DNA of 64,000 nt from Eledone cirrhosa (Eukaryota), in contig OZ024751.1 of NCBI GenBank assembly GCA_964016885.1, positions 28,458,001 to 28,522,000 on the forward strand, given 5' to 3'. The position numbers were made by a program, and so were the translations under genes. This document shows positions 3,168 through 52,622 of this stretch, in pieces. Position 1 is the stretch's first letter. Each line of letters opens with the position of its first letter. The notes under the pieces are model-generated. The model did no database searches and was not told the DNA's origin. It was given only the letters and a program-made list of their open reading frames with translations.

Positions 3168-3252
3168 GGTGACGCGCGTTTCGTTATTGATCAGCTCAAG
3201 GTTCGATCTGTATCGATCTCACCCGACTCTGTAATCAATGGCTCGTCGGACC
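3168..3252 (-). ncRNA. Degenerate type I hammerhead ribozyme in a Penelope-like fragment
   Basis: Minus strand: GGU CCGACGA (core with U4->C), long stem II (GCCAUUGAUU...GAUCAAUAAC), GAAA, palindromic stem III ACGCGCGU, GUC triplet, ACC. Confidence 0.6.
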
Positions 3253-3734
3253 TCTGTGGCAACAATGACAGAATACTACACTCTGTCTAGCTCTGCACCT
3301 CGATACAGACGTGAACCTAAACATCGAGTGCTCACCAGGATGAACCTACAGTAACTCCGCGTTACACTCCTAATATATACTTAATATTTCTTCATTGTAC
3401 TGTGTCGTTTGCATTTTGCATATATATATACATATACATTGAATTCTAGAATTATGGTTTCAGCGGGGATTTATCGTGAAAGATGTATAGCTCCATATTT
3501 ATATTTTTGACCCATGAGTCGTAACTAAAGAAACAACAACCATATGTAACAATTTATCCTTATCCTTACATTAGACATTATTTCGTTCCCAAGACGTGGT
3601 AAAATGTTTTGTTCTTTTTTTACGAGACTTTGAACCATAGCGTAACATAGAAATTGCTATAGGGATTTCCTTAAATGTCACCCAGGTGGGGATCTTGTTG
3701 TTATTGCTGTTGTTACTGCTGTTGTTGGATCTCC

Positions 3735-4030
3735 AATTGTTCTGACGGCCGTGTTACAGTTATTCCGTCAACGGAATATAGTCTGCAAATGAAATTAACC
3801 GTGCAAGTAGTTGAGAATTCCACAGACACGTGCACTCTTATCTTAGTTGTCAAAAAGATTGACCCTTTGAAATTACTGGTACAAGTAACTCATTTTTTTT
3901 TTAAGCTGAACGGATTGGATCAATGTGATAATAAATGCCTTGCTCAAAAACACATCGAGCCACCGAGAACAGAATTAACAGGGTTAAGATTGTGGGCCAA
4001 AGACCCACATCACAGACCAAACGCTTTCAC
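3735..4030 (-). mobile_element. Degenerate CORE-type SINE
   Basis: CAATGTGATAATAAATGCCTTGCTCAAAAACAC matches the CORE-type family loosely. Confidence 0.55.
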
Positions 4031-5864
4031 CACAGTAGTTACGGCTAAGTAGTTCGATATCCTGACCACAATACGTCGTGGTGAAAGGTGATTTGCATGA
4101 GTAAGTACTCAGATATAGTTACCGTCGAATATATATATAGAGATACATACATACATCCATATATATATATATATATACAGTAATAATAAATGTGAAGACT
4201 AAAATCCGAAGAGGGCTCGATAAAGATTATATATATATATATATATATATATATATATATATATATATGTGTGTGTGTGTGTGTGTGTGTGTGTATGTTT
4301 ATGTGTATACGTGTCTGTGTGTGTAGATGTATGTGTGTGTATGCATGTATGTGTGTATGTTGAATCTGCATGTGTCTGTATGTGTGAACGCGCGTGTATG
4401 TGCACTTATACACACAAATAAGCTCGCACTTACATCCATACCTTTCATTGATGCCTCTCGACATATACCGCAATATATATATCACATTCCACATTACTAC
4501 ATAAATACAAATATACCTCTCACATATATCGCATAAACACACAGACATATAAGACAGCAATAAACCAAAATTCTTCAATTGATATCTTTATTCGCATCAT
4601 TCTTAGAAATGTTTCTTGACAGAAATACCCAGAAATATCTAGTGCAAAAAATCGGTTTAAATAATTAAAAAAAGAATTTGTTGTTGAAATAAAATAAAAT
4701 AAATAAATAAAGAAAACCCTCAAAAAAAACAATGAGAGCTAATGACAGGGCAGGGATTATATGTATATATATAATTATGTATGTATGTATGTATATATAT
4801 ATATATATATATATATATATATATATATATATTGTATATTTATATATATGTATATATATATATTTAATTTTATATATGATCATATATATATATATATATA
4901 TGTATATATTACTTATGTGTATATGTATACATATGTCAAGGCAAGGCTTCTTTTTTTTAATAAACATGCAGTGTTTTGAACCAGTAGTCAGGTGTGTGAA
5001 TCATTACAGTTTTATAGTTTTTATATACATATATATATATATATATACATATATATATATATATAGAAAGATATACACACACATACATGTATATATGTAT
5101 ATATATATGTATATATATATATATATACATATATACATATACATATATATGTACATATATATATATATACATACATATATATATATATATATATACATAT
5201 ATATTTACATATATATATATATACATATATATGTACATATATATAATATATATATATATATATATATATATATATATATATATATATATATATGTATGTA
5301 TATATGTATGTATATATATATATATATATATATATATATATATATATATATATATATATATATATATATGTATGTATATATGTATATATATATATATATA
5401 TATATATATACACACATACATATATATATATATATATATATATATATATATATATATATATATATATATATATATATATATACACACATACATATATACA
5501 CATATATAGATATGCACGTATATACATATACAAATATGATGTATGTGTTGCCAGTGTGAAAAAATCGTCTTGACACCGTTAGTTAACTTGGTGAAAATGA
5601 TTAAATACTAATACTAATAGAAGTAGTAGTAATAATAGTGAAAGTAGTAATAGTTATAATAATAATAATGATAACGATGATGATGATAATAATAACAAGA
5701 ACATGGGGTATTATTAGTGAGAATAATAGGTAGTAGTAGTAGTAGTAGTAGTAGTAGTAGTAGTAGTAGTAGTAGTAGTAGTAGTAGTAGTTGTAGTAGT
5801 AGTAGTAGTAGTTAGTTTGTTAAAATGATGATTTCTTCAATATAATATGTTTAATGTAATAATA

Positions 5865-6120
5865 ATTGTTTCTACTTTTGGCACAGGGCCAGCAATTATC
5901 CCAGTGTATTACTGGTACTTTATTTAGTTTAATGTAATAATAATGATAATGATTTTTATTTTAGGCACGGGGCCAGCAATTTTGTGGGAGGGGAAATCGA
6001 TTAAATCGACTCCAGTGCATTACTGGTACTTTATTGTATCGACCTCGTAAGGATGAACAGCAAAGCTAACCTCGGCGGGATTTGAACTCAGACCGTAAAG
6101 GGTCGTAACTCTATGCTGCA
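5865..6120 (-). mobile_element. Main tRNA-derived SINE (Meta-domain-like core), partial plus longer copy
   Basis: Reverse complement of GAGTTCAAATCCCGCCGAGGTTAGCTTTGC..TTCATCCTT..GGTCGATA.AATAAAGTACCAGT, with B-box GTTCAAATCC. Confidence 0.8.
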
Positions 6121-51235: not shown

Positions 51236-51412
51236 AGAGCGGTGGATTAGCAGAATCGATAGAGCGTCGGACAACATACTTTGCGGTGTATAGTTACAAC
51301 CCTTTATGTTCTGAGTTCAAATCCCACCGAGGTTAGCTTTGCCTTTCATCCTTAAGGAGTCGATAAAATAAAGTACCAGTAACATACTGGTGCCAAAAGT
51401 AGAAATAATTAT
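51236..51412 (+). mobile_element. Main SINE, near full head and core
   Basis: GAGCGGTGGATTAGCAGAATCG...GAGTTCAAATCCCACCGAGGTTAGCTTTGCCTTTCATCC...AAGTACCAGT. Confidence 0.85.
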
Positions 51413-51544
51413 TACTTCTCTTTTCCTACTATATCAATCGTTAAACTAATATGTCTTCGTTGTACTGTGCTCTTCACATTTTCCATATATATATATATAT
51501 ATACAGAGAGAGAGATTATATATATATATATATATATATATATA

Positions 51545-51740
51545 TAGGAACCAGTAAGACCCCGACAGCTGAGCTCAAGCCGTTTCGACGGCTAATTCTG
51601 GACTCAGAATTAGCCGTCGAAACGGCTTGAGCTCAGCTGTCGGGGTCTTACTGGTTCCTATTACCCACTCTACTACCTCAAGTATTGAGTACTTTGGTGC
51701 GTTATGGTCCACCTGGTTCCTTACCACATTTCCTTCGTTA
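51545..51740 (+). mobile_element. Family A copy with a perfect 56-bp-arm palindrome
   Basis: Arms 51545-51600 and 51605-51660, loop GACT, then the tail to CCTTCGTTA(TA)n. Confidence 0.8.
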
Positions 51741-52309
51741 TATATATATATATATATACAGAGAGAGAGAGAGATTATATATATATATATATATATATAT
51801 ATATATATATATATATATATATATACAGAGAGAGAGAGAGATTATATATATATATATCTCTATATATATACAGAGAGAGATTATATATATCTATATATAC
51901 AGAGAGAGAGAGACATTATATATATATATATATATATATATCTCTCTCTCTCTCTATATATATATATATATATATATATATATATCTCTCTCTCTCTATA
52001 TATATATATATATATATATATATATATATATATATATATATATATATTTAATATAGAAATGGCTTACTGTGGTTACCCCCGATTGAACCCAGGATAAACT
52101 TATATATATATATATATATATATATATATATATATATATATATATATATGTGTGTGTGTGTGTGTGTGTGTGTGTGTGTGTGTGTGTGTGTGTGTGTGTG
52201 TGTGTGAGTGCGTGTGTGTGTGTGCGTAATATATATATTATTTTTCATTTTGTAAAAAAACCTCACTTTCTAATATATATATATATATATATATATATAT
52301 ATATATATA

Positions 52310-52622
52310 TACGATATTAATAAATGGAAACTATATTTATAAAACCATATTTATTTCATTATACATATTTCAGGGATACCAAATTAAATTATGGTATGCC
52401 TTCATCAGACAAAATACAATATATAACAGTTTTACAAATAAGCTTTGACGTATCCTATTAAAATGCACCCATTGTTTTTGGAAGCTATCCGGATATGGTT
52501 TTATAAATATAGTTTCCATTTATTAATATCGTATATCTACTCCAAATACTTGTCGAGTGCTTTATATCAGTTATAAAAATATTTACTTGTTGTATCCCAA
52601 CAATTTTAAATAGAACTTTTGC
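52310..52622. mobile_element. Penelope-like pseudo-LTR fragment with inverted partial copy, inserted in (TA)n
   Basis: About 40-bp inverted arms 52310-52350 and 52493-52533 enclose a hammerhead. The plus copy continues into a tail. TA runs on both sides. Confidence 0.68.
52352..52416 (-). ncRNA. Type I hammerhead ribozyme, sense to the onecut intron
   Basis: UAUUUUGU-CUGAUGA-AGGCAUACCA..UGGUAUCCCU-GAAA-UAUGUA-UA-AUGAAAUA. Stem I is 8 bp (2 GU), stem II pairs 9 of 10, AUA triplet. Confidence 0.8.

Follow-up and report, generated by a model that had tools for sequence, protein, structure and literature searches.

The 64-kb stretch C11:28458001-28522000 of the Eledone cirrhosa genome (hereafter the window; coordinates without a prefix are positions in the whole window) carries a series of hammerhead-shaped ribozyme motifs. 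We consider it very probable that these motifs sit at the 3' ends of repeat families inserted at (TA)n, namely pseudo-long terminal repeats (pLTRs) of Penelope-like elements (PLEs) and units without an open reading frame (ORF) that likely borrow the same enzymes. Every site in the window belongs to a dispersed repeat family with fixed 3' ends that run into (TA)n. The families are named A (3k), B (8.0k), C (8.3k), D (45k/47k), E (46k) and F (52k), and two of them, B and F, are the pLTRs of Hydra-clade PLEs.

Hammerhead motifs in the window

A sequence-only reading of the window had reported seven hammerhead cores, and all seven stretches are present at the positions and on the strands that it gave. 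A type I descriptor (CUGANGA, stem II, GAAA, stem III, UH and stem I, in this order) with a threshold score of at least 11 recovers seven cores, which comprise six of those sites and an eighth, inverted site at 8282-8343(-) that the earlier reading had overlooked:

8043-8073(+), 8359-8408(+), 8343-8282(-): descriptor cores in the left part, score at least 11
44995-45062(+), 46426-46456(+), 47132-47064(-), 52408-52360(-): descriptor cores in the right part, score at least 11

The shuffled control that had been proposed as a check yields means of 0.13 cores (maximum 1) in 100 global dinucleotide shuffles and 0.28 (maximum 2) in 100 local shuffles, and the reversed window yields none. The CUGANGA core had been claimed for all seven sites; it passes the strict descriptor at six, but the core at 3168-3252 is CCGACGA (U4C) and, with a 3-bp stem I and a stem II of ~60 nt, falls outside the scan. 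Likewise, the palindromic minimal stem III is perfect at the 3k, 8.3k and 46k sites and nearly so at 8.0k (U.U) and 52k (G.U), but the 45k and 47k sites have an 8-bp hairpin instead. The sites do lie near TA tracts, at 58-296 nt, but this proximity is uninformative because the median distance of random positions is already 127 nt. The informative feature is that the element ends abut (TA)n directly.

Single-strand folding of the sites is unremarkable (z -0.6 to -2.6). Among the 150 listed of 747 Rfam matches in the window there is no hammerhead family; all of those listed are under the gathering score, and nearly all pair a microsatellite with a miRNA model. A genome search with RF00163 yielded 415,510 rough first-look candidates; 74 of them were scored and 18 of these matched, which is no count of motifs. 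A weak match at 9840-9887 (score 10) was discarded as being at chance level.

Repeat families with fixed, TA-abutting 3' ends

The genome search gave 816-3590 first-look candidates per site; 40 of these were scored for each site and 30 were fetched. Best-match identity is 80-87% for family A and mostly 92-99% for families C-F, and copies of F and C are 95-99% identical with intact cores. (TA)n directly abuts 147 of the 174 mapped 3' ends (B 26/30, F 29/30, C 19/25, A 23/30, D 24/30 and E 26/29), which is the insertion preference of the Hydra clade. Five families have two fixed 3' end points, with 17 and 10 copies in B, 21 and 8 in F, 19 and 5 in C, 22 and 7 in A, and 12 and 14 in E, and D has one (24 copies); the paired end points lie 50-110 nt apart in five of the six families, and such pairs of ends are the tail signature described in PMC11167929. 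The 5' ends are ragged. Furthermore, an inverted hammerhead copy adjoins the first in 6/30 B, 12/30 C, 5/30 F and 6/30 E loci. Partial tandem pLTRs, inverted 5' copies, an optional tail and 5' truncation are described as marks of PLEs (PMC8557442, PMC11167929), and partial tandems, inverted copies, tails and 5' truncation all occur in these families. In families C, D, E and F, the short motif TTYCATTTAT coincides with the 3' end or immediately precedes it, and it is possibly a start or binding signal for the reverse transcriptase (RT) or merely a product of AT-richness. A short interspersed nuclear element with a fixed 5' end was considered for family A and rejected, given that this end is the inverted tail.

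The insertions and their hammerheads are as follows:

3125..3370 (-): family A insertion; an inverted tail of ~100 nt (about 3274-3370) fused with the hammerhead-bearing 3' end, then (TA)n
3168-3252 (-): family A hammerhead; U4C core, long stem II, 3-bp stem I, stem III ACGCGCGU
8029..8116 (+): family B; 5'-truncated pLTR of a Hydra-clade PLE
8037-8079 (+): family B hammerhead; 2-bp stem II, U.U at the stem II base
8140..8345 (-): family C inverted arm; tail and hammerhead 8282-8343, which lacks the 5' strand of stem I through truncation
8346..8446 (+): family C forward arm; hammerhead 8353-8414, stem III AUAUAUAU, superfamily common with F
44840..45300 (+): family D, subfamily D45; copy truncated at its 5' end, 633-nt unit without an ORF
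44989-45068 (+): D45 hammerhead; 8-bp stem III
46256..46746 (+): family E; partial tandem without an ORF, about 427 nt per unit, internal repeats in addition
46422-46460 (+): family E hammerhead; C.A at the stem II base, stem III ACUAGU
46804..47573 (-): family D, subfamily D47; about 1.35 units of a 575-nt period with a direct repeat of 204 nt, flanked by TA tracts
47058-47138 (-): D47 hammerhead; A.A in the window copy at the stem I pair adjoining the core
52312..52622 (-): family F insertion; inverted tail and 3' end of a 4.16-kb Hydra-clade PLE
52352-52416 (-): family F hammerhead
51544..51819 (no strand assigned): family G remnant, an inverted pair; holds just the 3' half of a hammerhead
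40558-40711, 52734-52894, 55393-55544, 56989-57109, 58380-58588: further family G remnants

In each of the window copies of A, C and F, an inverted tail is followed by a short end in forward orientation, and the two arms of C are 95% complementary over 66 nt. Elements of different families stand back to back around one TA tract at 46256-47573 and 8029-8446; a clustering of insertions through reuse of earlier flanks is suggested.

Family G is an abundant seventh family with a U3-A8 variant core, a long stem II and a stem III of at least 5 bp with a palindromic loop. It is usually truncated within the ribozyme and inverted, and full copies are present in L249, L208 and L246. In the 810-kb genome sample described below, 25 family G matches span the cleavage site and 7 the whole core. 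The U3-A8 descriptor is noisy (23 matches vs 8 in shuffled sequence over the 810 kb), and with this descriptor the window holds no complete family G core.

Penelope-like open reading frames

Which of these families are tied to a PLE protein? The earlier reading had noted that PLEs carry hammerheads in their pLTRs, and this link is seen through ORFs in B and F and is likely in C and A. In family B, 6/30 loci have a same-strand RT/endonuclease frame whose end lies 73-184 nt upstream of the core, and an ORF begins 111 nt downstream of the core in one locus. Family F is represented by a full pLTR-ORF-pLTR copy at L223, in which a core at 1043 is followed by ORF pieces at 1254-3501, a 1.7-kb 3' untranslated region (UTR), a second core at 5199 and an inverted core at 5412. 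L226 and L227 repeat this arrangement, and the unit length is 4,156 nt. Thus, a single ORF with RT and GIY-YIG endonuclease is linked to the hammerhead end in both families, and all ORF copies seen are frameshifted or partial.

The Hydra clade is diagnosed by RWK and DKT, a CxCx5C linker, CxxC, CxH, the absence of CCHH and a C-terminal endonuclease (PMC8557442). The B and F proteins carry DKT, CxCx5C, CxxC and CxH without CCHH, with RWR in place of RWK. The tendency of Hydra elements to be short (<3 kb, given as a tendency in PMC8557442) does not extend to F at 4,156 nt. A protein database search with the ORFs found 47 relatives, of which the named ones come from a coral and Octopus species; the Octopus relatives, which are misnamed as GATA proteins, are highest in identity (44-47%, partial). 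The structural model of one relative (P0001, 41% identical, pLDDT 75) has a fold that matches reverse transcriptases, with telomerase at ranks 2, 3, 5 and 6. Two Hydra-type RT fragments, P0031 and P0032, are publicly annotated as 'GATA zinc finger domain-containing protein 14-like'.

For family C, a same-strand endonuclease lies about 1.27 kb upstream in 1/30 loci. For family A, an inverted Hydra-type endonuclease stands against the upstream body in two loci, the two endonuclease copies being 79% identical to each other. Both families are likely PLE pLTRs as well.

A second PLE type, whose endonuclease has a CX2-5CxxC-like linker, occurs at L007, L096, L206, L244, L255 and L262, with hammerhead families of its own 240-350 nt downstream of the endonuclease. 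Judging from its motifs, this type may be Neptune-like.

Conservation of hammerhead structure

Families C and F form one superfamily related by compensatory stem II changes, and the roughly six unrelated families of the sequence-only reading are reduced to five lineages by this kinship of the 8.3k and 52k sites. Members were collected by flanking anchors that include stems I and III, with stem II left free. Among 61 distinct stem II sequences, 498 of 549 cells are paired, compared with 38-52% when the strands are slid, and position 4 is a near-constant mismatch. The covariation test used 30 of the 61, chosen for diversity: seven of eight stem II pairs change on both sides, in 56 cells vs 18.6 after shuffling (0/500 shuffles), and 95.6% of cells are paired vs 37-58% slid, the covariation counts being inflated by sequence relatedness. 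In family D, the stem I pair beside the core is G-C in 31 and A-U in 19 of 55 copies and swaps between the subfamilies, and the stems of B and E vary little. The covariation check that the reading had called for returns compensatory changes in C/F stem II and in one D stem I base pair, and it indicates that the hammerhead structure has been selected.

Family A has the U4C core in 24/39 matches and the canonical core in 4/39 (overlapping loci are perhaps counted twice). Relatives with an A-like long stem II and a canonical core are present in the genome sample (cluster 6). Given that the A core is the family norm and that such canonical relatives exist, 3168-3252 is a divergent hammerhead.

ORF-less families D and E

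Families D and E consist of units of 633 nt (D45), 575 nt (D47) or about 427 nt (E) in head-to-tail partial tandems. They share the retrozyme layout of ORF-less tandem units with a type I hammerhead, with two complete cores in a minority of loci: two same-strand cores occur in 4/30 E loci and 1/30 D45 loci, and several D47 loci are multi-unit. D and E are ORF-less tandem units that likely borrow PLE enzymes. Endonuclease and RT fragments beside D and E copies were considered as links and rejected, as TA tracts intervene or the fragments lie on the wrong side. A classical retrozyme layout is seen at L229:3649-4579, where each 310-nt unit of a tandem array (4 units seen) contains one hammerhead.

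The D47 copies inform on the template of reverse transcription. Thirty copies were retrieved by the DNA 3' of the cleavage site alone (two of the entries are one locus); 29 extend past the cleavage site, one begins 6 nt downstream of it, and no copy has its start exactly there. The copies run through the cleavage site, and reverse transcription must therefore have used a template unbroken at this bond. It was either uncleaved or re-ligated in a circle, and the data fit both alike. Uncleaved linear RNA is the dominant insertion substrate in vitro (PMC11167929), and a re-ligated circle has been proposed as the template (PMC4209133).

Genome-wide density

Is the window a local hotspot? This possibility was rejected, with 7 cores seen vs 7.4 expected. 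The genome is 3.0 Gb, AT-rich and microsatellite-rich, and density was sampled in 81 evenly spaced 10-kb chromosome stretches (810 kb), with unplaced contigs outside the sample. The sample holds 94 cores, a mean of 1.16 per 10 kb (bootstrap 0.81-1.52), and 40 of the 81 stretches have none; controls gave 5.2 cores in 10 local shuffles and 1 in reversed sequence. The neighbouring 100 kb holds 10 cores, and the 104 hits together form 33 sequence clusters, 13 of them with more than one member. The C/F superfamily accounts for 25 of the 94 sampled cores. The dense and diverse repertoire of about one core per 9 kb, previously extrapolated from the window, is thus borne out by the 810-kb sample and the 33 clusters. 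The net genome-wide number is about 3.3x10^5 cores (2.2-4.4x10^5), variant cores excluded.

This estimate exceeds any published count that we found, with descriptors that differ between studies. The axolotl has 126,247 motifs in 28 Gb (bioRxiv 10.64898/2026.07.22.740005), about 25 times sparser by a different descriptor. Hammerheads number about 9,000 in Xenopus tropicalis and about 4,000 in the coelacanth, again with different descriptors, and Schistosoma mansoni has about 2,000 and 1,300 besides thousands of canonical ones (PMC4209133); no full count for Schistosoma was found in the literature searched. The mussel has about 5,000 and the giant squid 235 by Rfam, descriptors likewise differing. 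PLE expansions are noted in a recent paper on the repeats of Octopus vulgaris, and ribozymes are not mentioned in the part of it that is available. No report of such a density or of a large cephalopod Hydra radiation was found in the literature searched, which did not cover subscription papers or bioRxiv supplements. The biology is of an already described kind rather than a new element type, and the scale is what is new.

Host gene and other features of the window

The window contains one recognizable host exon:

26782..27068 (-): Onecut-type homeobox coding exon

A CUT exon lies at C11:28850040(-), ~365 kb from the homeobox exon, and its donor joins the homeobox acceptor in frame. The two exons presumably flank a ~365-kb intron (also L375), and the 45k-52k elements are likely intronic, with 47k and 52k in sense. 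In the 165 kb examined of this intron of about 365 kb, there are four sense and four antisense cores.

Several other features accompany the insertions. The 3' end of a long interspersed nuclear element (LINE)-like frame lies between (TAA)n tracts at 45495-45728(+), blank in Pfam, and resembles the restriction-like endonuclease tail of R4/Dong-type elements. The intervals of about 48400-51000 and 60009-60908 hold long purine-skewed minisatellite tracts and an RTE-like LINE fragment. A short frame with a DKT motif at 62604-62700, also blank in Pfam, is possibly a Hydra-type N-terminal remnant.

Proposed mechanism and alternative explanations

The motifs, repeat families, element ends, linked ORFs, covariation and density are observations. 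In the likely scheme that we infer for nicking, priming, cleavage and trans-mobilization, the GIY-YIG endonuclease of the element would nick a TA tract, and its telomerase-like RT would begin synthesis 35-270 nt 3' of the cleavage site, at either of two fixed positions. The RT would copy back through the intact hammerhead, either uncleaved or re-ligated, usually stopping early or inverting. Most truncated copies would keep the ribozyme because it sits so near the RT start point, and the activity of many families over time would lead to about one core per 9 kb genome-wide. Cores with a palindromic stem III would cleave chiefly in dimeric form or when assisted by protein, cleavage as a monomer could be possible for D-type cores, and most solo genomic copies are probably inert relics.

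A number of observations weigh against this explanation. The family C link is one locus, in which only ~250 nt of the 1.27-kb gap is seen to be common to other copies, and the family A link consists of two inverted junctions. The ORFs have no RT or GIY-YIG match in Pfam, with a weak one in 1/22 members, and no solved structure in the PDB matched them by sequence; the assignment of B and F to the Hydra clade is drawn from motifs rather than from a tree with reference elements. No linked ORF or autonomous partner was identified in 60 D and 30 E loci, and D and E have no end common to an ORF-bearing family among the matches listed. Covariation is weak in C/F stems I and III, those columns being the search anchors. 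Self-cleavage of the window sites is a prediction from sequence, U4C lowers activity in vitro (PMC3088659), one of nine predicted Xenopus dimers cleaved (bioRxiv 2026.07.22.740005), and several window copies are defective (A.A at 47k, a broken pair at 45k).

These copy-specific defects also fit the notion that the cores are relics under no present selection, with selection on structure acting just in master elements and the dispersed copies inert. We regard this as reasonably likely. The 80-87% identity and U4C core of family A, the even split of 4 sense vs 4 antisense cores in the 165 kb examined of the Onecut intron and the preponderance of solo copies, whose palindromic stem III would need a partner, are all in line with it, but the F and C copies at 95-99% identity have intact cores. 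The relic interpretation is compatible with the scheme proposed above and differs from it just in denying any host effect.

For D and E, self-propagation as retrozymes is a close contender that we lean slightly against. Tandem transcripts would be cut to monomers and circularized, and the circles would serve as RT templates for insertions of one to two units. This is consistent with the ORF-less units, their head-to-tail partial tandems and multi-core loci, the copies that cross the cleavage site and the stable D stem III, and it fits the retrozymes of PMC7229834. However, uncleaved linear RNA explains the read-through equally well (PMC11167929), and the loci seen hold dispersed monomers to dimers, not long arrays.

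A wider extension of the proposed scheme, which we think unlikely, is that this genome carries the densest animal hammerhead load described, ~3x10^5 cores that stem from a large radiation of PLEs of the Hydra clade and others, that some of the sense or paired copies cut host pre-mRNA while it is being transcribed, and that D/E circular RNAs are mobilized by Hydra enzymes. If true, long introns would hold dozens of cores each, and transposon ribozymes would constitute a genome-wide RNA-processing layer in this lineage.

It is highly improbable that the sites are a host-domesticated hammerhead cluster controlling Onecut pre-mRNA. Four of the seven lie in the presumed Onecut intron, two of them in sense, and conserved intronic hammerheads are known in amniotes (PMC6155905), but the window is as dense in cores as the genome is on average, the part of the intron that was sampled tends to hold fewer of them, if it differs at all (8 cores in 165 kb), and each site is an unexceptional copy from a large family, most of these families being young. 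Finally, chance matches in AT-rich, microsatellite-rich DNA, which the weak single-strand folding, the roughly 5 of 94 sample hits expected by chance and some spurious-looking singletons might recall, are ruled out for practical purposes by 7 cores vs 0.1-0.3 in the window, 94 vs 5.2 in the sample, family conservation and compensatory changes.

Significance and comparison with known systems

The role of PLE hammerheads has been called unclear (PMC8557442). In a genome in which dozens of families, some just 1-5% diverged, amount to hundreds of thousands of copies, this role becomes testable statistically, and the handles include 5' ends relative to the cleavage site, intron strand bias, natural U4C and U3-A8 variants and compensatory changes. 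The present observations also suggest that the Hydra clade, known from few families, can make up a major class of repeats and that most such motifs escape annotation based on Rfam.

The closest known systems are the Hydra-clade PLEs (PMC8557442), which are alike in their C-terminal GIY-YIG endonuclease, RWK-like and DKT motifs, CxCx5C, CxxC and CxH without CCHH, (TA)n targets and a hammerhead in the pLTR. Many Hydra hammerheads listed in the supplement of that study have the same U.U at the stem II base and a near-palindromic stem III. Unlike those elements, family F has a 4.16-kb unit and a 1.7-kb 3' UTR. The minimal metazoan PLE hammerheads (PMC4209133) are similar in their solo motifs from truncated elements, many families per genome, opposite-strand pairs 100-700 bp apart and palindromic helix III, and they include a U3-A8 core variant like that of family G; their counts are in the thousands per genome, whereas ours reaches ~3x10^5 with a different descriptor.

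Families D and E resemble the non-LTR retrozymes (PMC7229834; bioRxiv 10.64898/2026.07.22.740005) in ORF-less head-to-tail type I units, low G+C and co-occurrence with PLEs. Unlike those retrozymes, they mostly span 0.7-2 units, and have PLE-type fixed TA-abutting ends and, in E, inversions. In the Anolis Poseidon element PAc (PMC11167929), two RT start sites likewise give rise to a tail, and the targets are AT-rich. PAc belongs to another clade, and its tail lies inside the ORF, whereas the tail here precedes the start codon and measures 50-110 nt. PAc inserts from RNA with an uncleaved hammerhead, and the present copies may be read likewise.

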